64,000 nt of DNA from an uncultured bacterium. Its GTDB lineage: Bacteria > Bacillota_I > Bacilli_A > RFN20 > CAG-826. The notes under the pieces are model-generated. The model had not been told where the DNA came from. It made no database searches and was given only the letters and a program-made list of their open reading frames with translations. The DNA lies in NCBI GenBank assembly GCA_949285455.1, contig CASDXP010000005.1:2756-66755 (forward strand), in the 5' to 3' direction. The translations under genes were made by a program, and so were the position numbers. Shown here in pieces: positions 15,330 to 60,406 of the stretch (within the stretch, counting starts at the first letter, position 1; every line of letters begins with the position of its first letter).

Positions 15330-15833
15330 ATGAAAAAAATTAAAAAAATATTTGCCATTTTATTTTCCTTTATCATTTTTACTCTCACTACTTCTTGTGA
15401 TGTTCCTATTCCTCCAAAAGAAATTACTACCGGCTTCTTTGGTGAAAGAGAATATCACGATTACGATTATTATGCAGAAATTTATTTAATGCACGATAGA
15501 TTTTATTTATTATGTTGGGAATATAATCATACTTGGGAAAGCGCATTAGTCACTGGCGGAATTTCTGGAGTAAGGGCTCACCCTGACGATGCTTATTACT
15601 GTCAAAAATATTATCCTTGTCCATTCCCTATTATGAAGGAAATTTTGAATGAGCGGCTTGAAAGCGGAACGAAACCTCCATTTAATGGCTTTCCAGAAGT
15701 TATTATTACTTCTTATCCTGCAACTAGAGATGAGTTAAATTCAGGGGTTACCTCTAGCGGCAGCGATATCGAATTATACAAAAAAATATACGAATATTTT
15801 GATTTGTATTGGAAGTATGGTAGTTATGAATAA
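15330..15833 (+). CDS. Putative lipoprotein (signal peptide + lipobox LTTSC)
   Basis: 167-aa ORF. N-terminus MKKIKKIFAILFSFIIFTLTTSCD. No recognisable catalytic motif. Confidence 0.45.
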   Translation: MKKIKKIFAILFSFIIFTLTTSCDVPIPPKEITTGFFGEREYHDYDYYAEIYLMHDRFYLLCWEYNHTWESALVTGGISGVRAHPDDAYYCQKYYPCPFPIMKEILNERLESGTKPPFNGFPEVIITSYPATRDELNSGVTSSGSDIELYKKIYEYFDLYWKYGSYE

Positions 15834-15834
15834 T

Positions 15835-16542
15835 ATGAAAAGATTAGTGTTGTTTTTAACTTTATTGCTTCCGCTTGCTGGGTGCGAAAACCAAGATCCG
15901 AATCTAGATTATTTATTTGCTTATTATGATGCAATGGCGCATTTAGGTGATGTTGAAGGTGCGTTAGATTTAGATAATAAACAAAGTTTAGTAAATGTTT
16001 CTTCTATTTACACTTTTTCTGATGGCTCACCTGAAGCGCACATTAGACAAGATTATGATTTAGATAATTATTATTATCATGAACTTACCACACAAGGTGA
16101 TTCGTTCATGGAAGTGTGGTTATATAAGAAAAACGAATTAGACATATTGTTCGTCATAAAGACTGATTACGGTCTTAATCGCTACTTCATTAAAGAATGT
16201 TCTAGTGAAGAAGAATTCAATCAAATGTTTGAAAAATATTCTATTAGATATATTCCCTTGATGCTTAGAGATTACGCTAATTATTCTTATGACAAAATTT
16301 ACGAAGTAAGAGAACTTCTAAACAATGAAACAGGTGTTTCTTTTAATAAAGATACGAAACATATTGGTATCAACTATACGTCTTACTCCTATGATTGGCT
16401 ATTTAATGAATTTGGTTTAATGTCTCAATCTTATAGTTGTGAAGAATATAGTTATGAACAAACATTTACTTTTGAAACTTTTGAACAAGTAGAAGCGGAT
16501 TATTCTAATTGTACTGATATAGGAGGGGTATTCTATGATTAA
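15835..16542 (+). CDS. Putative lipoprotein (lipobox LPLAGC)
   Basis: ORF track starts at 15799. ATG at 15835 (MKRLVLFLTLLLPLAGC) follows directly after the upstream stop and gives a canonical lipoprotein signal. Asp/Tyr-rich. Confidence 0.45.
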   Translation: MKRLVLFLTLLLPLAGCENQDPNLDYLFAYYDAMAHLGDVEGALDLDNKQSLVNVSSIYTFSDGSPEAHIRQDYDLDNYYYHELTTQGDSFMEVWLYKKNELDILFVIKTDYGLNRYFIKECSSEEEFNQMFEKYSIRYIPLMLRDYANYSYDKIYEVRELLNNETGVSFNKDTKHIGINYTSYSYDWLFNEFGLMSQSYSCEEYSYEQTFTFETFEQVEADYSNCTDIGGVFYD

Positions 16543-26688: not shown

Positions 26689-26741
26689 TTTTTCATTATT
26701 TCTTTATTGTTAAATAAAGTGTGATTATTTATCATAAAAAT

Positions 26742-27836
26742 ATGAAAAGGAAATTACTTCTACTCACAGCATTAATATTGCCGTTAGCAAGTTGCGATTT
26801 CTTTAAGCAATTTTTGCCTGACCCACCTTCACCTCCTAATCCCCCAGTGGAAGGTGATCAATTAAATATAATCGCCCTTGAGATGAAAGGAAGATATGGC
26901 GATAGTCTCATCATTAAATATAACGATTACGACATCTTAGTGGATGCTGGAACGGAAAGCGATGAAGATACAGTACAAGAGGCTTTAGTAAAATATGTGA
27001 CAGATAAAACAATCGATTTATTAATTCTCACTCATCTTCATAGTGACCACATCGGGGCGATGCAAGATGTAAGCTTTTTTAAATCGATTGGAATGAATGT
27101 TAAAACTTTCATCGATCCTGATACTTTACCAACTTCTAAAACGGCAGAAAATTATGTTGATATGCGCGAAGCTTTCGTTAGCGAGGGCAGCGATTACATT
27201 TCGTATTATGATTTAATTAATATTACAGAATATAAAAGAAAGATTTATTTGAGCGAAGAAGATAATATTTATCTAGAGTTCTTTGATACAGGCGCGGTAG
27301 CGAAACCAAAAGAAGAAGTAAGTGATTTAAATTCTTCGAGCATCGCTTGTGTTTTAAATTATTCTAATAGTAAAGTTTTCATGGCTGGTGATTTACCATC
27401 TAGCGAAGAAGAAGCTTTAATAAATAGTATGGATGCTTCGCAAAGAAATTATTTTAAAGAAGAAAATCAAGTGTTATATAAGACGTGTCATCACGGAAGT
27501 ATTACTTCCAATGGCGATGAACTTTTAACATATGTTAAACCAGATACCATTTTTTCTATGTCTGGTATTTTATCAAGCAATCAAGAAAACGCACCTTTAG
27601 AAGACCAACATCCTTACATAGCCGCTATTAACCGTATGGCTAAATATTCTAAAGATATTTATTGGACTTCCATTAACGGAACGACAGTTTTTTCTTCTAA
27701 AGGCGATATATTTACTAAAACATTCGCTGGCCGCACGGTGGATTATTACCTCGATGGTAAGATAGTAAGTAGAGAAGAAGAAAAAGATATTACTTTTTTA
27801 AATAGTGCTTGGTATAAACAATTAAGTCAGACATAA
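26742..27836 (+). CDS. Metallo-beta-lactamase-fold hydrolase lipoprotein (ComEC C-terminal-domain-like)
   Basis: Lipobox LPLASC. HxHxDH motif LTHLHSDHIG. ATG 26742 preferred (MKRKLLLLTALILPLASC). Confidence 0.55.
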   Translation: MKRKLLLLTALILPLASCDFFKQFLPDPPSPPNPPVEGDQLNIIALEMKGRYGDSLIIKYNDYDILVDAGTESDEDTVQEALVKYVTDKTIDLLILTHLHSDHIGAMQDVSFFKSIGMNVKTFIDPDTLPTSKTAENYVDMREAFVSEGSDYISYYDLINITEYKRKIYLSEEDNIYLEFFDTGAVAKPKEEVSDLNSSSIACVLNYSNSKVFMAGDLPSSEEEALINSMDASQRNYFKEENQVLYKTCHHGSITSNGDELLTYVKPDTIFSMSGILSSNQENAPLEDQHPYIAAINRMAKYSKDIYWTSINGTTVFSSKGDIFTKTFAGRTVDYYLDGKIVSREEEKDITFLNSAWYKQLSQT

Positions 27837-30741: not shown

Positions 30742-31299
30742 CTATAACGTCAAAGTAAAAACAAAAGCAAATATAATTGCGTTAAGCGACGCTAAAATTG
30801 AATAAATTTCGATAGGAATACTTTTAATTTTTTCTTCATTTTGTTCTTTTTCCTCATTTTCTTCTTCATCACTTTCAATCGATTCTAAAGGTTTAGAAAT
30901 AGTTCGCCCTCTTCTTTTAAAATGTTTCATTCTTGTTTGCTGATATAAATATCTTGCTAGCCAAATTATCGTTACCGTAACAAAAAGCAAAACTATAAAA
31001 CTTGGAATATCTAGTGGTTCGTTGATATCAAGATTTAATTTGTAAGTATATTCAACGTAAGCAAAAAGGATGATATCTATGATTAAAATTATGATAGAAA
31101 TGGGAAGCATATAGGTATATTCTCTTTTAGTCATTTTCTTTCTAATTTGATCTTTAGTTAACGCTCCTACTTTATTATCGATATGAAGCCATTTCTTCTT
31201 AAATATTTCTATCAATATAGAGGGATATAAAATCTGAAATAAACTTAATCCTATAATTGCGTATAAATATGAATACATTGATGATTGCCTACCCTTCAA
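30742..31299 (-). CDS. Small polytopic membrane protein, paralog of 31303..31848 (orphan immunity-protein candidate)
   Basis: 185-aa ORF, 3-4 predicted TM helices. N-terminal ~55 aa are closely similar to the neighbouring gene, then diverge. Acidic C-terminal tail. Confidence 0.4.
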   Translation of the reverse strand: MKGRQSSMYSYLYAIIGLSLFQILYPSILIEIFKKKWLHIDNKVGALTKDQIRKKMTKREYTYMLPISIIILIIDIILFAYVEYTYKLNLDINEPLDIPSFIVLLFVTVTIIWLARYLYQQTRMKHFKRRGRTISKPLESIESDEEENEEKEQNEEKIKSIPIEIYSILASLNAIIFAFVFTLTL

Positions 31300-31302
31300 C
31301 GA

Positions 31303-31848
31303 TTAATACAATATTAGAATTGGTATGAGGATGAAACTATTGAACAAAATAATTGAAGTATATAGTGTCATTGCAGCATTTTTGCCTGATTCATTCAAAA
31401 CCCATTTCATTCTTTTCCATCTCTCTCGTGCAGTATGCCGCCCATGGGCTAAATAACCCCCATCGACGGCTTTTATATTTCTTCCAAATATTTTTTTTCT
31501 TGCTTCGTAATAAACGTCAATAATTGCAGAAGCAAGAACAGCAAAGACAAAAAGCAATATTATTATGGAAGCAGCTACTATTAATGGCTTATCCATTGTA
31601 ATTGTGTATTGAAAAGCACAAAAACAATAAATTAGAAGAGTAGCGTTTATTATTAGAATTGGCAAAGAAACTAGAGTTAGAAAAATATGTTCCCTTTTTC
31701 CCATTTTATTTCTTACTTCTCTTTTAGATAAAGTTCCATTTTCATTATCGATATGGAACCATCGTTTTTTAAAAATAGTTATCAACAAAATGGGGAATAA
31801 AATTAGAAATAAACTTAACCCTATAATTGTATATAAATATGGATACAT
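31303..31848 (-). CDS. Small polytopic membrane protein immediately downstream of the RHS toxin gene (cognate immunity-protein candidate)
   Basis: 181-aa ORF beginning 22 nt after the RHS stop on the same strand. Hydrophobic helices. Confidence 0.4.
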   Translation of the reverse strand: MYPYLYTIIGLSLFLILFPILLITIFKKRWFHIDNENGTLSKREVRNKMGKREHIFLTLVSLPILIINATLLIYCFCAFQYTITMDKPLIVAASIIILLFVFAVLASAIIDVYYEARKKIFGRNIKAVDGGYLAHGRHTARERWKRMKWVLNESGKNAAMTLYTSIILFNSFILIPILILY

Positions 31849-31869
31849 TAGATTGCCTACCTGTTTCTA

Positions 31870-34800
31870 TTAATTTTTATTATTTTCTATTATTCCATAC
31901 ATTGATGAATTAAGGAAATCGCTTATTAAATTTTCGAATTTGTCTGAAATTATTTCTAGAAATTTAGGAGTTATAGATGTGCCTAACCTTGCTATTAGCC
32001 TCCCAAATATTTTATCCATTCCATTAGTGAGCTCTCCAAATATGTTAGTACTTATTCCGCTTACAACTCCGTTCATAAAAGAAGTAAAGAGATCCATATC
32101 AGTACCATACGTTAAAAAATCAGTAACTATTGAACCAATAATTTCGCCTGCAAAGGTAGCAACCACATCTACAATAAGCCTGGTGATTTTATAATATATA
32201 TGATTCAAACTAACAGCAGCAAATAATCCGCTTATAAATCCGCTTACAAATGCACCTAAATATTCTTGCCATGATGACCATTTCCATCTAGAAAAATCTA
32301 ATTGGTAATTGATTAGGTTCATTATGATATCTGTGACAAATAATGTAGCGACGCTTATTGCTGCAAATATTATTCCATATAGTAGTGCGGTTAATATCCA
32401 AATCCTTCCGCTTGAATCAACGTACTTAATAGGATTGTTTCTACAATAGATGTATAAATTTAAACCATTAAGTTGAGTTTTAGTTTCATCTAAGATTGAT
32501 AATTCATCACGTGAAATAAATCTAGCGAAGAAGGGACTATAATATCTTGCATTTAGATAATATAAATTAGATTCAGCGTCATAATAATAACTACGATATC
32601 TAAATGGGTTAATATTACCTATATTTTCTGAAGTGTGATTAATAACCTCGTGATTACCAAAAGCATCATATTCATAACTTGCAACTAGAGTTAAATCATC
32701 TTGCTTATAAATGTTTATAATGTCACCAAAAATATTTTTCTCATAAATGTAACTAGTGCCATTATGAGTAAAACCTATTAACGATTTATTCAAGTAATGG
32801 TATTCAATATCTTTCGAACTAGATTTTTCTCTTAAAATAAGATTATTTGATAAATAATATGTTGTTTTTTCACCATTTATTGTTTTTGAAGTTCTAATAC
32901 CGTTTAAATTATAAGTGTAACTAACATTATCAAAATTAATTAAATGCGATTCATTATTCCAAACGAAGGTATGATTATCATATGAAGTAAGTCTTCCTAA
33001 GGCATCGAAAGTTACATCTTTATCATTGACTCTTCTTAAGATATCTTTATTTGATGAAACGTTATAATAGAAGTTATCTACATGCGTGGAATCTAATAAT
33101 ATTTCATCTTCGTGAGTGTAATCATAAGTTGTTCTATTAACTAAATTACCATTTGCATCATAACTATACGTTATCGTTTTATTTAGTTCTTTATTATCTT
33201 CTCTAATTAAACGATCAACTTTATCGTATTTATAATAAGTATTACCAATATCACTTTTTACTTTGGTGACGTTAAGAAGTTTATCGTAATCGTAAGAATA
33301 ACGATGATAAACATTACTTCCAATAATATTTTCTAGCAATTTAATATTTGTAAGAGTCTTTTTGTCAGTGGTGAAATAATTTAAATTCTGTCTTAATAAA
33401 ACATTAGAATTAGTGTCCTTTATTTCGTTATATGTAAGACGACCAAAAACATCAGATTTTAAATTCGCTAAATAGTTAGATGAAGTGATAGAAGTTAATC
33501 TTAAGGTTTTACTATCATAAGAATAACTAGAAGATATAGTCTTATCGCCTAGATTGATACTTTCACTATCCAAACAATTTTTATTAGCGAAAGAATAAGT
33601 GTGAATAACATTAAGTTCATCGTAAGCATCAATTTCTTTAGTTAATCTATCGTAATCATCGTAAGTATATGAAATCGATTCTTCACCTTTTTCAATTTTT
33701 ATCAATCTTTTCTTATCATCATAAGTATAGTTAATAGTGGAATTATCGCTTCTCGTCGATTTTATTAAATTACTATCTTTATCATAAATTGAAGAAATCG
33801 TGTAGTTTAACGGACTAATCGTAGTGACTATCTTTTCCCCGTTAGTGACTAAATCGTCGCTGTAATTGCTAGTGTAGGCAAATGAATATAAAGACGATTC
33901 TCCAATTTTTATGTGGGTTTTACGGTGCTTATAATCATAAGAATAAGTATAAATTATTCCATCTTGCTCCATGGAAGTTAATAAATCCGATGTATAGTTA
34001 AATTTGATTGGATTAATTAAACCATCATCGTTATAAGAAAGATCCACTAGTTTTTGTGAATAGATATCGTAGCCTAATGATAATGTAGAATTATTTGGCC
34101 CGATGATAGTAGTAGGATATCTTGAATTAGAAAGATAATTAATCTGATAATCATCCTCATTTGTGAGTCTTCCTAATTCATCATAAACACTAGTTTTTTC
34201 TTGTTTTAAAGAAGGGGAATCTAAATTATATTGATAAGTTTTGTTCTTAAAACCTAATTCATCATAATTTATTTCTTTAACGTTATTTAAATTATCTATC
34301 GTACGAATTAATCGATTGTAATTATCGTAATCGTATTTCTTTTGAGCTGTAACACCGTAGATATCGTTAGAGACTTCCCTTACCAGATTTGAGTTTCTAT
34401 ATTCGTAATCTATTACGTTAGATGGGCTTAATTTTCTTAGTAAATGTAAGTCGTCATCATAAATATTAATTTCACCAATGACTTCATAAATTTTCACTTC
34501 TAAGTTAGTAAAGAAAGAAGAAGGAATTTCTAAATCAGAAGTAATTTTGATCGTTACCTTACTAACTAAATTATTGAAGAAAACCGGAATAGCTATTTGA
34601 GGGGTGATTCTATCGTAATGAATAGTGTAACTCGCTAGGTCGCCGGTCGCTATTATTTCAATCGATAATTCATTTTCATTATTGATATCAAAATTTGTTA
34701 TATTTGAAAAATCTATGATCGTGGCGGCAAGCAAATATTTTTTTGCAAAATCAATTTCACTTTTTAAAATTTGTAAAGTAAAACTACCATTTGAATAACT

Positions 34801-37800
34801 AACGTTTGTGTAGTTTTTAGTTGCAAGTAAATTTCTTTCTTCATAGCTTACATCGAATACGATATTTCTTTCGTTATAACTTTTATAAGAGGAAGAAGAA
34901 GTGAGCAAATCTAAATCTATGTTTTTTCGATAGATGATGTCACCGTTTTTATTGACGTAAACTGTCGTTTTATTATTGTTTATATTATCTTCAGCGGTAA
35001 TTTCAAAATTGTTCGCATTGACTCCCACATCTTCGATACTAGAATTGTCTACAATTTTATTTGTGATAAGGCCATCTTCAATACGAAGAGTTTTATTCGT
35101 GATATTGTATCCTTTAAATTTCATTTCGCTCCAAATGAAATTAATCTTTTCAGAGTTTGAATTCTCGACGGAGGTAAGATTTTTATAAGTATCGTAGGTA
35201 AATGTTAGTTTTTCCTCGTTTCCTTTATAGCCTTTAAAAATAATTTCATCTTGACCATCGCCTAATGTAAGAAGTCTAGTCATCTTAAATTTAGTTTCGA
35301 TTAGATTAGGATCGATGATGGAAGATAGAAGACCATTTTCATCGTAATTGATAGTAATTGTTTGCACAGATGAAGCAATTTCTACAAGGTTATCGTCGAT
35401 GTATTTAAGAGTTATTTCGTTTTCATTTAAATCGGAAATATAAATTAATCTTCCATAGTAATCAAATCCAAAGATTAAACCCTCTTCGCTTAAAAGGAAA
35501 TCTTGTGCATTATCTTTTTGCGCTAAGACTTCATTAGCCTTCAAAGTTCTATAATAATCGATATCTTTTTTATATCGATCGATTCTTTCTAATATGTCTT
35601 TGATAGAAAGTTTAATCGATTCAATTTGATGATTGTAACTTACGCTTGTGGAATTGAATGAATTAATTTGTGAGGCAGTTATTTGTTCTTCATTATTTAT
35701 CAGTTCACTAAAAACAGAATTCATCGTTTCCATTTGATTAGCGGTTTCTTCTTCCATTTGTTTTAAAGATAATAAGTATTGTTGAGCTTGTTTTGTTAAA
35801 TCTTTTAAAGTCGATTCATATTGTTCAATGGTACTTTCGATAGAAACTATATTTTCATTTTCATAGTAATCAGGTTTAATGTAAGTTTCATCGATATTTT
35901 TTGCATAATAATGATTTAACTCTAACTCGTTCGTAGCAATAGAATAAGCTTCCTTATTGTTAGTATTTAATTTGTAATAATATTTTGGTATGAGCGCAAA
36001 GTATTGTTCTTCTTTTATAGCGATAGAACAATTAATTAAGATAGGATTAACTTTTGTATTAGAGGATTTTAAATAATAACTGCCATTCTTATATTCGACT
36101 TCATTAGGAAAGTAGACAGCATATTGTAAAATTGCCTCATTCTGAGCATAAGTAACATCATTGAAATACATTGATAATAAAGAACGAACTTCGCTTTCAT
36201 CGTCAATTCTCGCCTTTGCTTGACCAATAAAACTAGTAATTTTAATTTGTCCGTTTTCATCTACTACCTTATCAATTGTTTCTAGCGGATCATCGTAAGT
36301 GAAGTGGTGGGTTAGTTTGACTTCTTTTTTCGAAGCCATATTTAAACTGTTCGCAGAGGAAATATAAGTAAGCCCATTAGAACTTATGACTTCGTAAGTT
36401 ACTTCGTGGACGTTACCGTGTCCATCTTTAAATTTATATTTTTGATCGCTATCTAGATAGACACTTTTATTGCTCACTAGATGATAAGAGCCGTCATTAT
36501 TTAAGTAGTACCATTTTTCGTAGAATGTATGAATATTTCCATTTCCATCAATGTAATGAATTTCATTTTGTAGTGCATCGATGTTATTTTGCTTACTTTT
36601 AATTAATCGAGAAGATAAGTTAAAAGCCCAACCTTTTGGAAGCCCCTTAATTTTATCTGCTGCTCTAAATAAATTTCTCGAATCATAATAAAAATTAAGA
36701 TTTACGCTCAATGCGTTAGAAGCGATGCTCGTCAGTGGAATTTCATAATGCAAATTACTTGTATATAAATTAGCCCTAAATGAAGAATTGTGACTAAAAT
36801 TATGCGAGATAATTACATTATTTTTATCATCACCAATACTTTGATATTTTGAAGTTATATTGGGGGTATTCTCACTATCGAAGCTAGTTTCATTAGTGAT
36901 AGCGATAAAAGGATTATTTTCTTTATTGTCAGCGACATATTCTAACGTTAATGTAATTGGTTCAATCGTTACATTTTCTTCTTTACGCTTAACGTCATCG
37001 TTAACGAAAGACGAAATATCGATTCGTAATAAATTATGAGAAGAATTGATAGGAACATTAGCGATGATAGTTTCACCATAAGACACTTTTATGTAATCGA
37101 GATCACTCACATTATCGCTAGCGTCAAATTTGATGTTAATAAACGATAAAAAATGTTCATTGCCTCTATCTTTTAATAATGAGGTAATTTCATCCATGTT
37201 GAGATTAATTTTTGTTAAGTTATTAACGCTATCTATGTAACCGCATATAGTTTTACCAGGATAGACATAATTATCGTTCGAATCTTTTATTTCTATAAGC
37301 GAAACATAGTTATATCTAAAATAAAGTTTAAGATTGACGCTTTGATTGGTGCTTAGATAAGCACTATTTGCTGTAATTATGATAGTTTTAGAAGATGTAA
37401 GATTATTAACTACTTGCACGTCAAAATCTTCACACGATATTTCCCCATCATTAGTCTCTAAATATGGTTCTAATATAAATCCATTATCAGTTCCAAAGAA
37501 ATTAACTTTTTTATCATCAACCTCCATTAATAGCGATGTAACAAAGCCAAGTGAGACTACACTATCACCAGTTTTTAAAGGTATTGTTAACAAGCACCCA
37601 TCGTTCGTAGATATAAGTGTATAGGCGGGACCAGGAATTGTGCCGCTTGTAGTTATTGTAGTTGGTCCATTGAAATAAACTATGGGAGATGGTCTGCTAG
37701 CAGTAGCAGAACTATTAACTCCATAAATTTGTTTATATATAGAGCACGTTAATGAAACAGAATCTTTATTTAAACTAAATGAAAAAGAATTATGTATAGT

Positions 37801-38106
37801 AGAACCATCACTAGCGATATAGGGAGTAGATATTTTTACATTTTTATTCAATGCTGAAATTGTTCGACTTTGTCCAGATAAGTTTTTGGCTAGAAGAAAA
37901 CTATTTTGAATAGGGACAACACTATTAGAAATATTAATAAAAGAAACTGGATGAGTGTATAATTTTATGTCAAGTTCATTAATTTCTTTAGAATAAATAC
38001 TAGATAATGAAAGTTTTAAGTCCTTATTTTTGTAATCGCCCATATAAGGAATATTCGCGTGATTCTTTTTTAAAAAGATGTCTTTAAAATTAAATTTATT
38101 TTGCAT
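31870..38106 (-). CDS. RHS/YD-repeat polymorphic toxin (2078 aa) with hydrophobic C-terminal extension
   Basis: Very long ORF. Many YD repeats (YTYDDKKRL, YTYDDYDRLTKE, YDANGNLVNRTTYDY). Terminal core ends in the ..NNPIKYVDSSGR.. motif, followed by a 177-aa hydrophobic tail. No N-terminal signal peptide seen. Confidence 0.85.
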   Translation of the reverse strand: MQNKFNFKDIFLKKNHANIPYMGDYKNKDLKLSLSSIYSKEINELDIKLYTHPVSFINISNSVVPIQNSFLLAKNLSGQSRTISALNKNVKISTPYIASDGSTIHNSFSFSLNKDSVSLTCSIYKQIYGVNSSATASRPSPIVYFNGPTTITTSGTIPGPAYTLISTNDGCLLTIPLKTGDSVVSLGFVTSLLMEVDDKKVNFFGTDNGFILEPYLETNDGEISCEDFDVQVVNNLTSSKTIIITANSAYLSTNQSVNLKLYFRYNYVSLIEIKDSNDNYVYPGKTICGYIDSVNNLTKINLNMDEITSLLKDRGNEHFLSFINIKFDASDNVSDLDYIKVSYGETIIANVPINSSHNLLRIDISSFVNDDVKRKEENVTIEPITLTLEYVADNKENNPFIAITNETSFDSENTPNITSKYQSIGDDKNNVIISHNFSHNSSFRANLYTSNLHYEIPLTSIASNALSVNLNFYYDSRNLFRAADKIKGLPKGWAFNLSSRLIKSKQNNIDALQNEIHYIDGNGNIHTFYEKWYYLNNDGSYHLVSNKSVYLDSDQKYKFKDGHGNVHEVTYEVISSNGLTYISSANSLNMASKKEVKLTHHFTYDDPLETIDKVVDENGQIKITSFIGQAKARIDDESEVRSLLSMYFNDVTYAQNEAILQYAVYFPNEVEYKNGSYYLKSSNTKVNPILINCSIAIKEEQYFALIPKYYYKLNTNNKEAYSIATNELELNHYYAKNIDETYIKPDYYENENIVSIESTIEQYESTLKDLTKQAQQYLLSLKQMEEETANQMETMNSVFSELINNEEQITASQINSFNSTSVSYNHQIESIKLSIKDILERIDRYKKDIDYYRTLKANEVLAQKDNAQDFLLSEEGLIFGFDYYGRLIYISDLNENEITLKYIDDNLVEIASSVQTITINYDENGLLSSIIDPNLIETKFKMTRLLTLGDGQDEIIFKGYKGNEEKLTFTYDTYKNLTSVENSNSEKINFIWSEMKFKGYNITNKTLRIEDGLITNKIVDNSSIEDVGVNANNFEITAEDNINNNKTTVYVNKNGDIIYRKNIDLDLLTSSSSYKSYNERNIVFDVSYEERNLLATKNYTNVSYSNGSFTLQILKSEIDFAKKYLLAATIIDFSNITNFDINNENELSIEIIATGDLASYTIHYDRITPQIAIPVFFNNLVSKVTIKITSDLEIPSSFFTNLEVKIYEVIGEINIYDDDLHLLRKLSPSNVIDYEYRNSNLVREVSNDIYGVTAQKKYDYDNYNRLIRTIDNLNNVKEINYDELGFKNKTYQYNLDSPSLKQEKTSVYDELGRLTNEDDYQINYLSNSRYPTTIIGPNNSTLSLGYDIYSQKLVDLSYNDDGLINPIKFNYTSDLLTSMEQDGIIYTYSYDYKHRKTHIKIGESSLYSFAYTSNYSDDLVTNGEKIVTTISPLNYTISSIYDKDSNLIKSTRSDNSTINYTYDDKKRLIKIEKGEESISYTYDDYDRLTKEIDAYDELNVIHTYSFANKNCLDSESINLGDKTISSSYSYDSKTLRLTSITSSNYLANLKSDVFGRLTYNEIKDTNSNVLLRQNLNYFTTDKKTLTNIKLLENIIGSNVYHRYSYDYDKLLNVTKVKSDIGNTYYKYDKVDRLIREDNKELNKTITYSYDANGNLVNRTTYDYTHEDEILLDSTHVDNFYYNVSSNKDILRRVNDKDVTFDALGRLTSYDNHTFVWNNESHLINFDNVSYTYNLNGIRTSKTINGEKTTYYLSNNLILREKSSSKDIEYHYLNKSLIGFTHNGTSYIYEKNIFGDIINIYKQDDLTLVASYEYDAFGNHEVINHTSENIGNINPFRYRSYYYDAESNLYYLNARYYSPFFARFISRDELSILDETKTQLNGLNLYIYCRNNPIKYVDSSGRIWILTALLYGIIFAAISVATLFVTDIIMNLINYQLDFSRWKWSSWQEYLGAFVSGFISGLFAAVSLNHIYYKITRLIVDVVATFAGEIIGSIVTDFLTYGTDMDLFTSFMNGVVSGISTNIFGELTNGMDKIFGRLIARLGTSITPKFLEIISDKFENLISDFLNSSMYGIIENNKN

Positions 38107-38259: not shown

Positions 38260-39456
38260 ATGCATTGCGTAAGAAAAGTTAATGAATCGCTCACGTGGGT
38301 CGGTGCGGATGACCGTAAAATTCATATTTTTGAAGGTGTCTATCCTTTAAAAAGAGGAATGTCTTATAATTCTTACTTACTAAAGGATGAGAAGACGGTT
38401 TTGTTAGACACTGTCGATAAAGCTTGCTTAGAGACTTTTTTAGAAAACGTTAAGTATGCACTAGATGGAAGAAAATTAGATTATATTATCGTCCATCATA
38501 TGGAACCTGATCATTCCGCTACTTTAAAAATTTTATTAGATTATTATCCTGAGGCTACAGTCGTTTGTAACCAAAAGATTTTAAACATGATTTATCAATT
38601 CTTTGGTAGCGATTTAAAACTTCAAACGTTGATCGTTAATGAAGGGGACACTTTAAATGTTGGCGAACATACTTTTCATTTTGTAAACGCTCCAATGGTG
38701 CACTGGCCAGAAGTGATGATGAGTTATGAAAGTAAAGATAAAATTTTATTTTCCGCAGATGCTTTTGGCACTTTTGGTGCTTTAAATGGGGCTTTATTTT
38801 CTGATGAAGTGGAATATGAACATAATTATTTAGATGAAGCGAGAAGATATTACACAAATATTGTTGGAAAATATGGTCCACAAGTGCAAGCGGTCTTAAA
38901 GAAAGCAAGTGCTTTAGACATTAAACTCATTTGCCCATTACATGGTTTCGTCTTTAGAAAAGATTTAGATAAAATTATCGATAAATATTTGAAGTGGAGT
39001 TCTTATACACCAGAAGAAAAAGGTGTTTTATTAGTTTATAGTTCAGTTTATGGTCACACGGAAAATGCCGCGAATATTTTAGCGTGCCAACTGGTGGAAA
39101 AAGGATTGAGAGTCGAAATGTTCGACTTATCTTTAACTGATGTGTCAGAAGTAGTGGCGAATGCTTTTAAATATTCACATATCGTTTTAGCCTCCACAAC
39201 ATACAATATGGGTATATTCTTACTCATGGATAATTTATTACATGATTTAATTGCGCATAATTTACAAAATAGAATTGTTGCTATTATGGAAAATGGTAGT
39301 TGGGCTCCTCAAGCGGGTAAACTTATGAAAGAAGAAGTGATGAAGATGAAAAATATGACCATCTTAGAAAATAGTGTCACGATCAAATCGAGCGTGGATG
39401 AATCTTCTTTAACACAAATTGTTTCTCTTGCGGACGCTATAGCGAAAACTTTTTAA
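38260..39456 (+). CDS. Flavodiiron protein (FprA-type; MBL-like diiron domain + flavodoxin domain)
   Basis: 398-aa ORF. N-terminal HxExDH-type diiron motif (HHMEPDHSA). C-terminal flavodoxin-like domain (LLVYSSVYGHTE). Confidence 0.7.
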   Translation: MHCVRKVNESLTWVGADDRKIHIFEGVYPLKRGMSYNSYLLKDEKTVLLDTVDKACLETFLENVKYALDGRKLDYIIVHHMEPDHSATLKILLDYYPEATVVCNQKILNMIYQFFGSDLKLQTLIVNEGDTLNVGEHTFHFVNAPMVHWPEVMMSYESKDKILFSADAFGTFGALNGALFSDEVEYEHNYLDEARRYYTNIVGKYGPQVQAVLKKASALDIKLICPLHGFVFRKDLDKIIDKYLKWSSYTPEEKGVLLVYSSVYGHTENAANILACQLVEKGLRVEMFDLSLTDVSEVVANAFKYSHIVLASTTYNMGIFLLMDNLLHDLIAHNLQNRIVAIMENGSWAPQAGKLMKEEVMKMKNMTILENSVTIKSSVDESSLTQIVSLADAIAKTF

Positions 39457-39493
39457 TCGAATAAAATAATATTTTTTAATGAAGAGCCTAAAA

Positions 39494-39519
39494 ACGATTT
39501 AGGCTTTTTCTTATATTTT
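39494..39519 (+). terminator. Rho-independent terminator after the flavodiiron gene
   Basis: AGCCTAAA/TTTAGGCT 8-bp stem followed by TTTTT. Confidence 0.65.
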
Positions 39520-39660
39520 AGAAATTCATATTATTAGTATACGTGTATGCATACTGTACACACGCAAAAAACTTGTTAAAAAATTTTTAAAAAAACTATT
39601 GCAATTAAACGCTTAAACGCATATCTTAACGCATATATAGTAATAGAAAGGAGATTACAC

Positions 39661-42237
39661 ATGAATTTAAAGAAATTTGTTCTATTACCTCTAGCTGCTT
39701 TAGTTCTTGCTAGCTGTGGTCCTAATGTCGTTCCTCCCGAAGGCATTTCTGTCGCCGCAGCTGAAACGACTTTAGAGATGGGCGATACGATGACTCTCAC
39801 CGCCACTCTTACGCCTGCAGATGCTGAAGCAGATATCACTTGGTCTTCAAGTGACACCGAAGTTGCCACTGTCGATGCGACAGGTACAGTTACAGCTGTT
39901 GGTTTAGGCGAAGTTGAAATTACGGCGACCGTTGTCAGCGATGACATCATTCTCCGCGATTCCGTTACTTTAGCCGTCAATCCTGATGTGGAAGCAGTGC
40001 TTGCAAGTATCGCAACTGAAATTGCTGTTACTGGTACCGCAAGTCTTGTTGCTCCAGGAGGAAGTCTAGGTTCCTTCGCTTTTGATACTTACCTTAACGT
40101 TAACCAAGGTGAAATGCAATTGTATTGGTCTTCCGAAGGTTCCGTCTATAGCTATTTCGCTGATGAAGAAGGTTATCTTGTCGATTACGTTTTAAATAAT
40201 CATAATGAAGTACAAGTAATTTCTTATACTTCTGGTGGTCAACCAGTCCCCGCTGAAAACTACATCACTTATTCCTTCGGCGCGATCACCGCTTCTGAAG
40301 TGGTAGTTACCACTCCAACCCAATTAGATGTCGCAATTGGTGAAGATCATGGTGCAGTAGATTTAGCAGTCGAATTATCTGGTTACATCTGCGACGTCAC
40401 CGATACTGTTACGATCAATCTTAATAAAGATGGTAGCGTTGCATCTCTTACTGTCGTCGGTCACGGTGTAGCTGAACTTACTGGTGGTTCTACTACCGAT
40501 TACGTTAATACAGTTACCGCAACTGTTACGACCAAAGAAGCCATCGGCGCTCCAAATAAAGCTACACCAATGCCAGAATTAACTGGTGATGATGCCGCTA
40601 TTGTCAATTCATTCCTTACCGGTTTAGAAAATGAAAACTACACATTAGACATCGTCGATACTGGTGAAAGTATTGGTGAAGTTGTCGTCACTGACGACGG
40701 CGTCATTGCCGATGGTACAGTTTTTGCTTTAACGACTGATGGTGTCTATGAAGTTACAGTTGATGAAGAAGCTGGTACGATGACTGCTACTAGCGCAGAA
40801 GCTATTGCTGCTGCAGTTTCAGAACTTCTCAATCCAGTTGATTTCTCACCAAACTTATTTATTCCACAAGGTAATAATGTCTATAAATTAGCTGGTGGTT
40901 TAACTGATAATGTATTACTTGGTCTTGATCCAGCCTTAGTCTTCATTGGTGACTATTATTTAATTCCAAGTATCAATTCAGTTGAAATTACTTTAACCGT
41001 CGAAGGTGCGACCGTTACAGGTGCAACTCTCTCTTATACCTATGATTATTATGGATTAGGTTGGATTATGGGTGATTTAGTCATTACTATCACTAATATT
41101 GGTACGACTGCTTTCCCATATGCTGACTTAGAATTCGTCGAATACGTTCCACCAACTGCTTGGAGTGATGTTACTGGTGACGAAAATTGGTATCAAACTG
41201 CTACTGAAGCTTTAGGCGAAGAAGTTGATAACGTTCCATTCATCGTAGCTGATTGGTATGGTTATGCTGACACTGAAGATTCTGAATTTGGTGTTCAAGC
41301 TTCATTTACTTCTCAAACTGACGCTGTTAATTTAGTTAATTCTTATCTTGCTATTCTTGCGGCTGCTGGTTGGACCGATAGTGGCTTAGTAGATCCTTAT
41401 GGTTCCGTTGCCTACACTAATGGAACGAGCGCAATCTATGTTTCCACAGATGCTTGGTCAAGCGGTTATGACTATATCACCGATATTATCTTCTGGTCCG
41501 TCGATAGCTTAGCACCTGCTGTTACTCAGTGGAGTGATCTTGACGCTGCTTGGGCTGAAGGAATTAACACTACTACCGGTGGCGATATCGATACCGTTCC
41601 ATTCACGGACTTAGGTTGGCAATTAATGAGTGGAAACTACGCTATTGGTGGTGTTACTACAGATGTATATGATGCCTCTTACAATGCTTATTATTTAGAA
41701 TATGCACTCACAGAAGCTGGTTGGACGCAAACTGGATTAATTGATCCAGCAACCGAAAATGAAGTGTGGACATTAGAAGGTAATCCAATTGCTGTATCCG
41801 TTTATCTAGTTACAGTTACTATGACAGATGGTAGCACAGGCTACGCCGTCAAAGTTGATTTCCTTGCTGCTAGCAGTTGTGTTATGCCGCCTGCTGCCAC
41901 TTCTTGGTCTGAATATGATGCTGATTTTGCCGCTTCTATGGAAGCAGCAGGAATTGATGTTGATCTTGTTCCATTCTTAGACGCTGAATGGGCATGCGAT
42001 GCATCTACATCTTCCGCTTACGTCTACACTGATCCAACAACCGCACAAGAAATTTATGACGCTTACGTCGCTCTTTTAGAAGAAGCTGGTTGGACCGCTG
42101 CTGGTGAAGCTGATGAAAGCGGCATCACAACCTTCACTAACCCAGATACAAACGTTACAATTGGTGTTCAATTAGACGTTAGAACTACTTCTGTTGCTTA
42201 CGTTAACTTATACTGGGGCACTAGTGCTGCTGAATAA
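39661..42237 (+). CDS. Large Ala/Thr/Gly/Asp-rich surface lipoprotein: Big_2 domain + shared middle domain + three ~100-aa C-terminal repeats
   Basis: 858-aa ORF. Lipobox LASCG. Big_2 signature ..ITWSSSDTEVATVDATGTVTAVGLGEVEITA.. Three repeats of the pattern W-S-D/E...VPF...Y..LE.AGWT..G. Nucleotide composition is visibly more G+C-rich than its surroundings. Confidence 0.6.
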   Translation: MNLKKFVLLPLAALVLASCGPNVVPPEGISVAAAETTLEMGDTMTLTATLTPADAEADITWSSSDTEVATVDATGTVTAVGLGEVEITATVVSDDIILRDSVTLAVNPDVEAVLASIATEIAVTGTASLVAPGGSLGSFAFDTYLNVNQGEMQLYWSSEGSVYSYFADEEGYLVDYVLNNHNEVQVISYTSGGQPVPAENYITYSFGAITASEVVVTTPTQLDVAIGEDHGAVDLAVELSGYICDVTDTVTINLNKDGSVASLTVVGHGVAELTGGSTTDYVNTVTATVTTKEAIGAPNKATPMPELTGDDAAIVNSFLTGLENENYTLDIVDTGESIGEVVVTDDGVIADGTVFALTTDGVYEVTVDEEAGTMTATSAEAIAAAVSELLNPVDFSPNLFIPQGNNVYKLAGGLTDNVLLGLDPALVFIGDYYLIPSINSVEITLTVEGATVTGATLSYTYDYYGLGWIMGDLVITITNIGTTAFPYADLEFVEYVPPTAWSDVTGDENWYQTATEALGEEVDNVPFIVADWYGYADTEDSEFGVQASFTSQTDAVNLVNSYLAILAAAGWTDSGLVDPYGSVAYTNGTSAIYVSTDAWSSGYDYITDIIFWSVDSLAPAVTQWSDLDAAWAEGINTTTGGDIDTVPFTDLGWQLMSGNYAIGGVTTDVYDASYNAYYLEYALTEAGWTQTGLIDPATENEVWTLEGNPIAVSVYLVTVTMTDGSTGYAVKVDFLAASSCVMPPAATSWSEYDADFAASMEAAGIDVDLVPFLDAEWACDASTSSAYVYTDPTTAQEIYDAYVALLEEAGWTAAGEADESGITTFTNPDTNVTIGVQLDVRTTSVAYVNLYWGTSAAE

Positions 42238-42271
42238 TTAAATATTTATTTCAATAGCAATAAAATTACAA

Positions 42272-42304
42272 GGGTCTTGCTTCCTAAAGCAAGGCTCTTT
42301 TTAA
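42272..42304 (+). terminator. Rho-independent terminator after the 858-aa lipoprotein gene
   Basis: CTTGCTT...AAGCAAG stem followed by CTCTTTTT. Confidence 0.6.
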
Positions 42305-42501
42305 TTGCTTATAACTACTATATTAACCTGGGAAATTCCGGTAAATGTACCTAGAAAATTCCGAATTTTCATAAAATCATGAACGTTTTACATAGTAAAC
42401 AAACTAAGAATATTAACAACAATTATAAAATTTTCTAGTTTACACTAGAGTGAAAAGAATGTAATATATATAGCGTTATCGAAAGAAAGGGATAAAAAGA
42501 T

Positions 42502-42732
42502 ATGGAATGGTATGACATCATCTTCTTAATCGTTGGTATCATCGCTATCATCTTATCGCTCATGCAAGGTGGTAAATCACAAGGTGCCTCTGGTGCGATT
42601 ACCGGTGGTGGTCTCAATATCTTTGTTAAAACGAAAGAAAGAGGTATTGAAAAAGTTATTTCTATTCTCACTTTAATCGTCGATATTGCCTTCATGACAA
42701 TCGCTATTCTTATCAACGCTTACGCTGGTTAA
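42502..42732 (+). CDS. secG: Preprotein translocase subunit SecG
   Basis: 76-aa two-helix protein. Gly-rich loop LMQGGKSQGASGAITGGG is typical of SecG. Confidence 0.65.
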   Translation: MEWYDIIFLIVGIIAIILSLMQGGKSQGASGAITGGGLNIFVKTKERGIEKVISILTLIVDIAFMTIAILINAYAG

Positions 42733-42760
42733 GCAATAGTTTATTAAGAAACAATCTTCT

Positions 42761-42786
42761 AAGTCCTCTCGTAGGACTTTTTTCTT
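42761..42786 (+). terminator. Rho-independent terminator after secG
   Basis: AAGTCCT ctcgt AGGACTT stem followed by TTTTTC. Confidence 0.65.
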
Positions 42787-42838
42787 TTATTTGATAAATG
42801 CTTATCATTAATAATGATATTGCTATATAATGTGATAT

Positions 42839-50046: not shown

Positions 50047-50124
50047 GGCGAATGTGGTGAAGTGGTTAACACAACCGGCTGTGAACCGGTCATTTCGCGG
50101 GTTCAACTCCCGTCGTTCGCCCCA
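50047..50124 (+). tRNA. tRNA-His (anticodon GTG) with encoded G-1 and 3' CCA
   Basis: Cloverleaf folded by hand. 8-bp acceptor stem GGCGAATG/CGTTCGCC (G-1:C73, one G-U). Anticodon stem CCGG/CCGG with loop CTGTGAA. T-arm GCGGG-TTCAACT-CCCGT. CCA at 50122..50124. Confidence 0.8.
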
Positions 50125-53247: not shown

Positions 53248-53541
53248 TTATGCCTTTAAACACCCTATTGGGACAACTTTTATTCCATCTTCTCTTGTAT
53301 ATGCTATTTCTCCACCAGTGATGATCATGAGCAAATCTGGTTCTTTGATATTTTTGTTCTCGTTTTTTGCATTTGAAATTAGCTCTTTTAACTTTAAAAG
53401 ATGCTTTGCGCTTTCTTCAATTTGTTTATTACCTAATTTAAACTCAATCAAGGCGTAGCAGCCAACAATCAAAACTGCGCCAACACTATCTAGCATTTCT
53501 TCTAATATATTGTCTAAATATCTAGGGAAATATTGTTCCAT
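53248..53541 (-). CDS. Small PD-(D/E)xK-like protein (possible nuclease-domain remnant)
   Basis: 97-aa ORF. ..D-x13-IEFK.. (D..ExK-like) motif resembling the C-terminal domain of the neighbouring DUF4143 ATPases. No upstream ATPase part. Confidence 0.3.
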   Translation of the reverse strand: MEQYFPRYLDNILEEMLDSVGAVLIVGCYALIEFKLGNKQIEESAKHLLKLKELISNAKNENKNIKEPDLLMIITGGEIAYTREDGIKVVPIGCLKA

Positions 53542-56110: not shown

Positions 56111-56575
56111 ATGAAAATTCTTATCACTTACGTCTCTTTTTCTGGCGTTACAAAAAAAGTTGCTTTACGTTTAAAAGAAATGTTAGGGGCGGATGAAGAA
56201 GAAATTGTTCCAAGCAAGGCTTATATTTTAGAAGATTTAAACTGGAACGATAAATATTCTCGCTCATCCATGGAGATGAACGATGAAAAATCTCGCCCTA
56301 GTTTTAAACCGTTAACATTAGACCCCTTAGCCTATGATGTTATCTTCATCGGCTATCCTATTTGGTGGTACGTCGAACCACGTCTCATCGATACATTTTT
56401 AGACTATTACGATTTAAAAAATAAAATAATTGTTCCTTTTGCCACAAGCGGGAGCAGTGGGATTGCTGGAAGTCTTACCCACCTGCGTAATTTATATCCA
56501 TCTTTAAATATCAAAGAAGGATTATTACTTAACGATTACATCGATGAAAATAAAATTAGAGCTTTGATGTCATGA
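56111..56575 (+). CDS. Flavodoxin-like protein
   Basis: 154-aa ORF. N-terminus MKILITYVSFSGVTKKVA is a flavodoxin FMN-binding loop. Confidence 0.55.
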   Translation: MKILITYVSFSGVTKKVALRLKEMLGADEEEIVPSKAYILEDLNWNDKYSRSSMEMNDEKSRPSFKPLTLDPLAYDVIFIGYPIWWYVEPRLIDTFLDYYDLKNKIIVPFATSGSSGIAGSLTHLRNLYPSLNIKEGLLLNDYIDENKIRALMS

Positions 56576-57000
56576 AAAAAATATTTGCTTTTGCCTTACT
56601 AAGCACTTTTGCTTTGATGAGTTGTTATAATGCGAATTTAAAAGAAGAAATGGTCATAGAAATTGCTGGTGAAAGAAGAACCTTAACCTTAGAAAATAAT
56701 GATAGCGTTAATGCATTAATTTCTTTAATATCCACGAACGACGGAAAATTAAGCCTCACTTTTAGCGATTATGGGGGCTTTGAAAAACTTACTAATCTTA
56801 ATACAACTCTTCCTTCAAATGACGTTAAAGTCGTCACTGAACCTGGCGACATCGTCTTATATCAAAGTTCACATTTAGTCATCTTCTATGGCTCTAATAG
56901 TTGGTCGTATACACGCATAGGAAAAATTGATGATACTTCGGACTTATCTTCATTTTTAAAAGAAGGGGAAGAAGTAAATATCGATTTTCTTTGCGTTTAG
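56572..57000 (+). CDS. Cyclophilin-like-fold lipoprotein (DUF-type, commonly paired with flavodoxin genes)
   Basis: 142-aa ORF. Lipobox LMSCY. ..IEIAGERRTLTLENNDSVNALISL..GDIVLYQSSHLVIFYGSNSWSYTRIGKID.. matches the cyclophilin-like family. 4-nt overlap with the flavodoxin gene. Confidence 0.5.
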   Translation: MKKIFAFALLSTFALMSCYNANLKEEMVIEIAGERRTLTLENNDSVNALISLISTNDGKLSLTFSDYGGFEKLTNLNTTLPSNDVKVVTEPGDIVLYQSSHLVIFYGSNSWSYTRIGKIDDTSDLSSFLKEGEEVNIDFLCV

Positions 57001-59712: not shown

Positions 59713-59833
59713 ATATATTTTTCTCCTTTTCTAGTCATTAAAATTATACGCTTAAATGTTTAAAAATTTAACGAAATGCTCATATTTACTAATTTATTAG
59801 GATTTGATATCTTGAAAGTGTGAGGTGCTAAAT

Positions 59834-60406
59834 ATGAAAAATAAGTTAAAAACTTTCGTCTTTTTACCTATCATTCTTTTGACGCTTTCTTCCTGTGGAG
59901 AAAGTAAGCCTTCAATTTTTGTCGCCTCCACTGGTTTACGTGCGGTTTTAGAAACGGTGGAAGAACTTTCTTTTAGCGTAAGAGTCTACTTTGGCCGTAC
60001 GGATGACTTTGTAAAATTTTATCAAGAAAATTATGAATTTAATGAAATTCCTAAAGACGGAATATATGTCATCGAAAGAGCAATTTATGATAATTACAAT
60101 ACTTTGATGGATAGACTTATTACCCCGATTGAAGATTTCGTTTCTAACGACGATTATTTCATGGATTATTACTATCATGAGGAAAACGATATAGTGGGTC
60201 ATTATGTTTTCGATCATTATTATCTAGACGTTATCGACCTTAGTAATATTCATTGTAATGAAGGTCACATAAATTATTTATTAAAATACGTTCGCGCGAG
60301 CGATTATACTGAATATGATAGGAGTTATTTATTAGGTGGAACTTATCAAGATGGTGATATGAGTTTTGATATCGAAGAATCAATCTTGGAAGTTTCTTTA
60401 ACGTAA
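59834..60406 (+). CDS. Putative lipoprotein (lipobox LSSCG)
   Basis: ATG 59834 after TGAGGTG. MKNKLKTFVFLPIILLTLSSCG signal. Asp/Tyr-rich, no catalytic motif. Confidence 0.45.
   Translation: MKNKLKTFVFLPIILLTLSSCGESKPSIFVASTGLRAVLETVEELSFSVRVYFGRTDDFVKFYQENYEFNEIPKDGIYVIERAIYDNYNTLMDRLITPIEDFVSNDDYFMDYYYHEENDIVGHYVFDHYYLDVIDLSNIHCNEGHINYLLKYVRASDYTEYDRSYLLGGTYQDGDMSFDIEESILEVSLT

Follow-up and report, generated by a model that had tools for sequence, protein, structure and literature searches.

A tandem array of a new protein module forms the end of a large lipoprotein encoded in the DNA analysed here, a stretch of 64,000 nucleotides (the window) from contig CASDXP010000005.1 of an uncultured Bacilli bacterium (assembly GCA_949285455.1). 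The gene at 39661..42237 encodes a lipoprotein of 858 amino acids (aa), which we call pA, and its last 363 residues consist of three tandem units of about 115-125 aa each, the modules A1, A2 and A3 (units 1 to 3). As judged from the sequences, the three are old, diverged copies of one module. The module matches no named family, known structure or literature, and it recurs in a second lipoprotein of the window, pB (640 aa, 60559..62481), and in 63 proteins of a sequence collection. The module is best read as defining a new, so far unnamed family of domains in a well-known class, that of tandem-domain surface proteins; the evidence does not make it categorically new.

Three tandem modules at the end of pA

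An initial annotation of this DNA had read the end of pA as three tandem copies of a unit of about 100 aa, each with a VPF and an AGWT motif. The repetition was borne out, and so were both motifs in each copy (positions in Table 1); the length was not, since the units span aa 496-618, 619-743 and 744-858. Unit pairs were compared by composition-corrected blastp and by Smith-Waterman scores set against 1000 composition-preserving shuffles. The relationship was detected for A1 and A3 (E 3e-12, 35% identity, shuffle z 14.4), for A2 and A3 (E 2e-9, 39% identity, z 10.7) and for A1 and A2 (E 2e-6, 31% identity, z 7.8), and in no pair did any of the 1000 shuffles score as high as the real units. Control segments taken from the central region of pA, equally biased in composition, gave z values of 0.4-1.3.

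The whole-pA homology search was dominated by Big_2 proteins, and only five full-length orthologues (59-65% identity) were useful. In these, all three units are in register, position for position, and the copy number is three in every one (n=5). Tandem Repeats Finder (minimum score 30) found no DNA-level tandem repeats inside 39661..42237, and DNA-level slippage repeats were thus rejected for pA. Because the units stay in register in five orthologues without any repeat in the DNA, the triplication is old and fixed rather than a slippage array. Note that module copy 2 is the most divergent segment of pA between orthologues (38-42% identity).

A paralogue in the same window, a 545-aa lipoprotein encoded at 16535..18172, has the signal, Big_2 domain and core of pA and no modules. 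Its alignment to pA stops at aa 495 ('...NIGTTSFSYNGATFVPF'), exactly where unit 1 starts. Since the paralogue ends where the pA modules begin, the module array is a separable add-on. The composition of this protein is of the ordinary Lys/Asn/Ile-rich kind. Its gene is the last of three consecutive lipoprotein genes (15330..18172).

A predicted alpha/beta fold that matches no known family

The AlphaFold2 (AF2) model of pA unit 3, made from the unit alignment, has a predicted local distance difference test score (pLDDT) of 90.2 and a predicted template modelling score of 0.81. It places helices at residues 8-21 and 51-67 and strands at 37-39, 44-49, 81-85, 91-99 and 105-113, so that the predicted layout is a helix, a beta-hairpin (37-39/44-49), a long helix and three strands. 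In the model, the first helix begins at the conserved Trp, the invariant Pro of VPF lies in the loop before the first strand, and A-G-W-T stands directly after the end of the long helix. Among 35 diverse modules this Pro is invariant and one Leu and one Gly are nearly so; the consensus also retains a Trp, a Tyr, A-G-x-T and a D-x-Y-G turn. The same 35 modules have no evident conserved set of catalytic-type polar residues and no conserved His/Glu column, and neither similarity to an enzyme family nor a conserved polar constellation hinting at catalysis was found for the module. Set on the predicted fold, the conserved positions look structural.

The module had been announced as novel, and nothing in our searches contradicts this. 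Against Pfam and NCBIfam, the module regions of pA and pB gave nothing at E <= 1 except noise (DUF6197, E 0.039). When the 35 modules were scanned singly against Pfam, no family was matched by more than three of them (best E 1e-3); NCBIfam matches in 10 family proteins were confined to the N-terminal signal and linker regions, and the precomputed matches of family members to a newer Pfam release contained none, save a 'faint' DUF2812 on P0124. A PDB sequence search with pA, pB and the 35 modules returned zero matches, Foldseek with the unit 3 model gave no match at E <= 0.001 in PDB or BFVD, and the literature search yielded nothing relevant on the module or on Lys-depleted surface proteins.

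A family of module proteins in metagenomes

An earlier word-index profile search with the unit alignment had returned one protein only, a fragment of a pB orthologue. When 1.84 billion representatives were searched exhaustively with hmmsearch, 63 proteins were recovered at E <= 1e-3, 10 of them at E <= 1e-10, and as many as 13 stretches were matched in a single protein. With a broader profile, consecutive modules numbered 15 in P0137, 8 in P0124, 6 in P0129 and 5 in P0144; a family protein may have a single module or as many as about 15, and the arrays in metagenomic lipoproteins comprise 3 to about 15. The median module length in the family is 111 aa. A lipobox-like N-terminus is present in 49 of 64 sequences (62 family members, pA and pB), and in most of the inspected proteins a lipoprotein signal and a Ser/Thr/Pro-rich linker are followed by a remainder made largely of tandem modules. 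One match, P0149 (a protein with a type IX secretion system tail), is probably a false positive, as only profile positions 15-42 were matched, four times.

The modules come in two flavours: one, 'W-[ST]-x-x-[ED] ... LP[FY]', is that of pA and pB, and the other, which is commoner, reads 'WPAE[DE]IA..LG..TD.LPA ... Y...L..AG[WFY]T..G.D.YGD..Y.SPN'. Their position is equally varied, being C-terminal in pA and N-terminal in pB. Big_2 co-occurs with modules in pA, P0122, P0152 and P0163, and Big_3 does so in P0129. A pA-like core followed by 1-3 modules is found in P0122, P0123, P0135, P0138 and P0171, and a C-terminal OmpA domain accompanies modules in P0157 and P0178, two distant and only partial matches. 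None of 20 family or orthologue sequences that were looked up bore an informative name, 'hypothetical protein' being the only one found. The gene neighbourhoods of three family members had no consistent shared partners, P0137 standing alone on contigs of about 6 kb; one family member adjoins an alpha-amylase with CBM26. The scaffolds that bear family members are small, about 0.8-0.9 Mb.

Five members (P0143, P0148, P0154, P0164 and P0173) also have in common an unannotated C-terminal region of roughly 100-170 aa after the modules, with motifs such as '...VWNNGAFSF...GN...Y.A.P.R.Y..Q...I...' and '...DGSKY.S.AL...Q.R...V.V.F'. It gave zero Pfam matches in the four proteins scanned and, from its sequence, may be a second unnamed domain.

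One module, and possibly a second, in pB

The initial annotation had also seen two copies of the module at the start of pB, of which one stood. Copy B1, in which LPF and AGYT replace VPF and AGWT, is related to A3 (blastp 8e-6, shuffle z 7.1) and less closely to A1 (z 3.8), and a profile made from pA-type units alone barely detected it (E 0.37). The family profile built from 87 modules without pB and its orthologue matched B1 over its full length (26.2 bits, E 4e-10), and because this profile is independent of pB, B1 is assigned on sequence grounds to the family. Note that the family profile was seeded with the pA units, which are assigned to the family by their pairwise and shuffle statistics instead.

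The candidate second copy, B2, has the W-T-x-E-D start of the module. Its pairwise shuffle tests were indistinguishable from chance (z -0.5 to 1.8), the family hidden Markov model (HMM) gave it negative scores (-1.8 and -1.6 bits), and the profile-profile comparison by hhalign was marginal (P 1.4e-3, probability 18%). A C-terminal segment of pB, B3 (aa 498-640, GTKWSKD...NPFP...), was not significant either (HMM 2.1 bits, hhalign P 0.063). The AF2 model of full-length pB (4 near-identical sequences, pLDDT 44) has the helix and strand order of the module at B1, B2 and B3, which is a hint only. A degenerate copy at B2 is thus possible on the strength of the model.

The pB start is the ATG at 60559. 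An upstream TTG at 60490 was rejected because the orthologues begin at the same Met as the ATG. Directly 3' of pB lies a transposase gene (62600..63994, minus strand; 464 aa, rve integrase core and HTH_29), the sole mobile-element signal near pA or pB.

Composition of pA and pB

Both genes had been described as Ala/Thr/Gly/Asp/Glu-rich and G+C-richer than their surroundings, which is what we found. The G+C content is 0.43 in each, against about 0.33 in the other window genes (range about 0.28-0.40); the five residues make up 0.47 of pA and 0.41 of pB, against 0.19-0.36 elsewhere, and Lys, Asn and Ile together make up 0.10-0.12, against 0.16-0.31. The label 'compositionally atypical' is apt for residue usage and fails where it would imply foreign origin. 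At third codon positions (GC3) the G+C is 0.28 in pA, the same as in the genome, and 0.37 in pB, with 0.18-0.42 in other window genes; the excess in pA lies at codon positions 1 and 2 (0.54 and 0.46). At four-fold sites the values are 0.247 in pA (z -1.1) and 0.421 in pB (z +1.5), the background being 0.32 +/- 0.07, and the within-amino-acid codon use correlates with the background at 0.86 and 0.82, respectively (long genes 0.86-0.97). The G+C is higher because Ala, Thr, Gly, Asp and Glu have taken the place of nearly all Lys, Asn and Ile: the local rise is one of amino-acid usage, not foreign DNA.

Basic residues are almost absent from pA. In the mature protein, 7 of the 839 residues (0.8%) are Lys or Arg and the net charge is -117, and only 2 of the 7 lie in the 363 residues of the modules; in pB, Lys and Arg amount to 3.1% and the net charge is -84. 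The proportion is 0.9-1.9% in the pA orthologues, and the median of the other window genes is 12.8%. Acidity is equal in the modules, the Big_2 region and the core of pA. Across 89 module instances the medians are 2.3% for Lys plus Arg, 17.6% for Asp plus Glu and 14% for Trp, Tyr and Phe together, the last being 12-15% in the pA units. Four further predicted lipoproteins of the window, all on the plus strand (15799..16542, 26721..27836, 56572..57000 and 59825..60406), have 6.5-9.2% Lys plus Arg against the window median; depletion of basic residues may be a general trend of the exported proteins of this organism, with pA the extreme.

Divergence of the pA locus

The locus is syntenic in two related metagenome-assembled genomes (MAGs; loci L001 and L002), in the order fprA-like gene, pA, a gene for a 426-aa ATPase-like protein, folD and an open reading frame (ORF) of 198-201 aa. 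pA is 61-65% identical to its syntenic orthologues and the flanking genes are 75-97% identical. The idea of a variable surface-protein family thus held for the variability of pA, and not for a local multigene family: in a profile scan the window held only two module-bearing genes, pA and pB.

Nonsynonymous to synonymous rate ratios (dN/dS) and synonymous rates (dS) were obtained by the Nei-Gojobori method for the window against L002. For the flanking genes (97%, 87% and 96.5% identity) dN/dS is 0.03-0.10 and dS 0.33-0.70, and for pA overall (65% identity) they are 0.36 and 0.74. Units 1 and 2 are only 45% and 42% identical, with dN/dS of 0.38-0.41 and dS of 1.3-1.5, whereas unit 3 (85% identity, dN/dS 0.20, dS 0.41) and the Big_2 region (77% identity, dN/dS 0.33, dS 0.41) have the dS of the flanks. 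Since dS is far above the flanks over units 1-2 only, these data point to allelic replacement or recombination over these two units, atop a generally weak constraint.

The role of the arrays and the alternatives

The reading that we prefer, with moderate confidence, is that the pA array is made of self-folding alpha/beta 'bead' domains of an exposed, polyanionic surface lipoprotein, with a scaffold role. pA would be encoded by a monocistronic chromosomal gene of an uncultured low-G+C Bacilli bacterium; the protein would be lipid-anchored at the cell surface and end in three ancient copies of a self-folding domain of about 110-125 aa. Each domain would comprise an N-terminal helix starting from the conserved Trp, a loop with the invariant Pro (VPF/LPF), a beta-hairpin, a long helix with A-G-[W/F/Y]-T as its cap and three antiparallel strands. 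Set head to tail, 1 to about 15 such modules would form the extracellular part of very acidic, Lys/Arg-poor lipoproteins, and their role would be structural: an exposed bead that projects and presents a polyanionic surface with few sites for trypsin cleavage. The pA array would sit at the membrane-distal end and is the fastest-diverging part of the protein, as would be expected of a surface that meets phages, host factors or competitors. Surface exposure, a scaffold or interaction role and protease resistance are what we infer for pA from these features. Several points weigh against this picture. Surface exposure is deduced from a single sequence feature, the lipobox, and the bead function from a predicted model, which itself came from a shallow alignment (9 sequences), with four of the five models reaching a pLDDT of only 69-75. 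dN/dS is below 1 everywhere and so does not demonstrate diversifying selection, and relaxed constraint or recombination would also fit the rates. Finally, the aromatic content of 12-15% and the D-x-Y-G-D...S-P-N loop of the commonest subtype would equally suit a specific ligand or cation site.

This last point leads to a reading that we regard as possible and clearly less probable, in which the modules are specific binding units for carbohydrate, host matrix or cell envelope, like carbohydrate-binding modules (CBMs) or cell-wall-binding repeats, and pA-type proteins serve as adhesins or in nutrient capture, the copies giving avidity. The modules are indeed rich in aromatic residues, tandem multiplicity is typical of avidity binders, the commonest subtype has a conserved loop, D-x-Y-G-D-x-x-Y-x-S-P-N, the modules of P0157 and P0178 are fused to the OmpA peptidoglycan-binding domain, and the alpha-amylase with CBM26 adjoins one family member. 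However, the module has no similarity to the Pfam CBM, LysM, SLH, SH3b/GW, choline-binding or CW_binding families, the Pro, Leu and Gly that are strictly conserved across the family look like core or turn positions, no conserved gene neighbourhood indicates a substrate, and it would be odd for units that bind a conserved ligand to be the fastest-diverging ones of pA. A ligand- or host-binding role, as suggested by the initial annotation from the sequence, may apply to the module. An improbable alternative gives the weight to composition rather than to the surface of the fold: the arrays would be a fixed polyanion, a cation-binding, protease-resistant coat serving instead of teichoic acids or an S-layer where the wall is reduced or absent. 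The net charges of mature pA and pB, the Lys/Arg depletion kept in orthologues and across the family, the ordinary composition of the module-less paralogue and the small scaffolds of family members would all suit it, but the loss of wall or teichoic acid is an assumption of this reading, the equal acidity of the Big_2 and core regions makes the charge a property of the protein and not of the module, no cation-binding motif was identified, and the other window lipoproteins are only mildly Lys/Arg-poor (6.5-9%). A bolder combination, which we also consider unlikely, would see in the arrays an undescribed cell coat of lipid-anchored, nearly Lys/Arg-free polyanionic 'bead chains', trypsin-resistant and cation-binding, that replaces teichoic acids or the S-layer in small-genome Bacilli and whose distal modules (pA units 1-2) are swapped by recombination at the interface with phage or host.

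Two alternatives concern the sequence rather than the function. That pA and pB are recently acquired, a horizontally transferred surface-protein cassette, would account for their higher G+C, for the insertion sequence transposase of the rve family directly after pB and for the somewhat high GC3 and four-fold values of pB, and is in our view very improbable: the pB value is within the range of other genes, the pA values are at or below the genome mean, the G+C excess is at codon positions 1 and 2, the order of the fprA-like gene, pA and secG/folD is kept in the two related MAGs, and dS in unit 3 and over Big_2 equals that of the flanking genes. For pA, horizontal transfer is essentially refuted by GC3, codon use and synteny. 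We give least credence of all to the idea that the repeats are an artefact of the Ala/Thr/Asp/Glu-biased composition. The protein is strongly biased, but the composition-preserving shuffles never reached the unit scores (z 7.8-14.4) and the equally biased controls stayed at chance, blastp was composition-corrected (E 2e-6 to 3e-12), the motifs recur in register and AF2 predicts a compact fold; the shuffle tests refute the artefact.

Comparison with known systems

A close parallel to the self-folding bead arrays that we favour is offered by tandem Ig-like domains (Big_2 PF02368, Big_3 PF07523, Rib-type), which are likewise self-folding units of about 80-120 aa set head to tail in anchored surface proteins, the first two being found in the same proteins as the module. 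They differ in that the Ig-like fold is an all-beta sandwich whereas the module is predicted to be alpha/beta with two helices; Big_2/Big_3-type domains have no sequence relationship to the module, and the module proteins are extremely acidic and Lys/Arg-depleted. Among the top Foldseek neighbours in PDB are the KA1/CIPK regulatory domain and the N-terminal domain of BamC (2zfd_B, 2yh6_A, 3osm, 4yom_A; 104-119 residues). KA1 and BamC domains are two-layer alpha+beta, and the lipoprotein BamC carries such domains in tandem. These matches are weak (best E 9.8e-3, template modelling score 0.37-0.43, root-mean-square deviation 4-6 A, 5-12% identity) and are evidence of neither homology nor the same topology.

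The last five elements of the module (44-49, 51-67, 81-85, 91-99, 105-113) have the order beta-alpha-beta-beta-beta, which is compatible with the paired modules of the vicinal-oxygen-chelate (VOC) family (glyoxalase/bleomycin-resistance, PF00903), whose helix 'FY..LGF' is resembled by the module helix motif Y...L..AG[WF], and the distant member P0179 has a summed Glyoxalase score of 30.7 bits with no single stretch passing alone. However, none of the 35 modules matches PF00903 at E <= 1, nor do pA and pB, conserved His/Glu metal ligands are absent, and no glyoxalase structure is among the 50 listed Foldseek PDB matches. The case of DUF2812 (PF11193) is similar: the repeats of P0124 together reach 30.3 bits against a cut-off of 27.8, the match covering the helix and hairpin 'Y..L..AGW...', but no P0124 stretch passes alone, and none of the 35 modules matches, nor do pA and pB. 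DUF2812 is a family of small membrane proteins rather than of lipoprotein arrays, and a literature search on DUF2812 function found nothing. Membership of PF00903 and of DUF2812 was rejected, there being no domain-level Pfam match in either case.

Listeria GW modules (InlB, Ami; SH3b-like) are also tandem surface-protein modules with a conserved Gly-Trp. The GW unit is all-beta, SH3-like and about 80 aa long, and it binds lipoteichoic acid, whereas the module is predicted to be alpha/beta with two long helices; GW/SH3b membership was rejected on these helices and on the absence of a Pfam SH3_8/GW match. The variable lipoproteins of mycoplasmas (Vlp, Vsa, Vsp) are, like pA, lipid-anchored, repeat-containing, fast-evolving surface proteins, in relatives of the low-G+C Bacilli. 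They rely on short, nearly identical DNA tandem repeats that expand and contract, whereas the pA copies are 31-39% identical in protein, fixed in number and without DNA repeat. pA is thus not a size-variable repeat lipoprotein of the mycoplasma type.

Gene organisation and neighbouring features

The features of pA, pB and the paralogue are listed in Table 1. The N-terminus of pA is MNLKKFVLLPLAALVLASC followed by G, i.e. ...ALVLASC before the G, with the Cys at position 19. With the lipobox taken as a signal peptide ending in [LVI][ASTVI][GAS]C and read by eye from the translations, both pA and pB carry the signal of bacterial lipoproteins (Lgt/LspA substrates), kept in the orthologues of both, which agrees with their earlier description as surface lipoproteins. 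In the Pfam scan of pA, Big_2 alone rose above noise, and the NCBIfam scan of pA gave zero matches. Because terminator-like hairpins lie on both sides of it, pA is, from its sequence context, monocistronic. Its 5' neighbour is a flavodiiron-type gene (ODP/Lactamase_B plus flavodoxin), and secG and folD follow on its 3' side.

Table 1. Features of pA, pB and the pA paralogue (positions in the window)
Feature	Coordinates	Strand	Evidence and remarks
545-aa lipoprotein, paralogue of pA aa 1-495 (signal, Big_2, core), without modules	16535..18172	+	blastp E 7e-24; Big_2 match; Lys+Arg 6.8%
Terminator-like hairpin closing the upstream flavodiiron-type gene (38260..39456)	39481..39509	+	pattern scan and sequence; bounds the pA transcription unit on its 5' side
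GGAG ribosome-binding site, 7 nt 5' of the pA ATG	39650..39653	+	direct sequence reading
pA, 858-aa lipoprotein gene	39661..42237	+	order: signal/lipobox, Big_2, uncharacterised core of ~400 aa, three tandem modules
pA signal peptide with lipobox L-A-S-C (Cys19)	39661..39717	+	from translation; kept in orthologues
Big_2 Ig-like domain, pA aa 28-91	39742..39933	+	Pfam PF02368, E 3.9e-16, 59.2 bits against cut-off 22.8
pA central region, aa ~100-495	39958..41145	+	without family match; common to the paralogue 16535..18172 together with Big_2
Module copy 1 (A1), aa 496-618; VPF aa 525, AGWT aa 569	41146..41514	+	blastp, profile, shuffles
Module copy 2 (A2), aa 619-743; VPF aa 646, AGWT aa 686	41515..41889	+	blastp, profile, shuffles
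Module copy 3 (A3), aa 744-858; VPF aa 770, AGWT aa 809	41890..42234	+	blastp, profile, shuffles, AF2 pLDDT 90
Terminator-like hairpin, 13 pairs then T-run, 33 nt past the pA stop	42270..42299	+	pattern scan and sequence
pB, 640-aa lipoprotein gene	60559..62481	+	starts MSKTKLMLLPLAALALGAC followed by A; lipobox ...ALALGAC before the A, Cys19
Module copy B1, pB aa 22-124	60622..60930	+	LPF and AGYT
Candidate degenerate copy B2, pB aa 125-268 (KFAWTAEDLEAM...)	60931..61362	+	hhalign marginal; low-confidence AF2 model

Upstream of pA (39540..39640, plus strand) there is a palindrome-like stretch, GTATACGTGTATGCATACTGTACACACG, and direct repeats, TTAAACGC TTAAACGC ... TTAACGC, which may be regulatory sites; the Rfam scan gave zero matches there or near pA and pB, its sole match in the window being a tRNA gene (50048..50121, plus strand). 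Antisense ORFs over pA and pB (e.g. 39576..39980) have their openness as sole support. The ATPase-like gene that lies between pA and folD in the related MAGs (L001 13016..14296, L002 9788..11068; P-loop motif GPKGSGKT) is missing from the corresponding gap of the window (42238..42838), which holds only secG (42502..42732, Pfam SecG E 1.3e-12); with this gene as query, tblastn found a short related segment at 53254..53463 on the minus strand (56% identity over 72 aa). The minus-strand region 30742..38106 encodes a 2078-aa RHS-repeat protein (Pfam) and then a pair of ORFs for small membrane proteins, paralogous to each other (31303..31848 and 30742..31299), a layout that resembles, by analogy, a polymorphic toxin with immunity-like genes.

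Significance of the module family

The tandem-domain surface architecture of pA is familiar; the domain itself is without name, structure or literature, and it makes up the bulk of many large lipoproteins in bacteria known from metagenomes only. Definition of the family would make an unannotated protein class recognisable, and a working profile is available (from the alignments labelled A2 and A4, with 63 representative matches). The locus also carries a methodological warning, because the local rise in G+C reflects amino-acid choice here and not horizontal transfer. Finally, the near-absence of Lys and Arg and the mosaic, fast-diverging units 1-2 provide testable hypotheses on how uncultured Bacilli may encounter proteases, phages and hosts.

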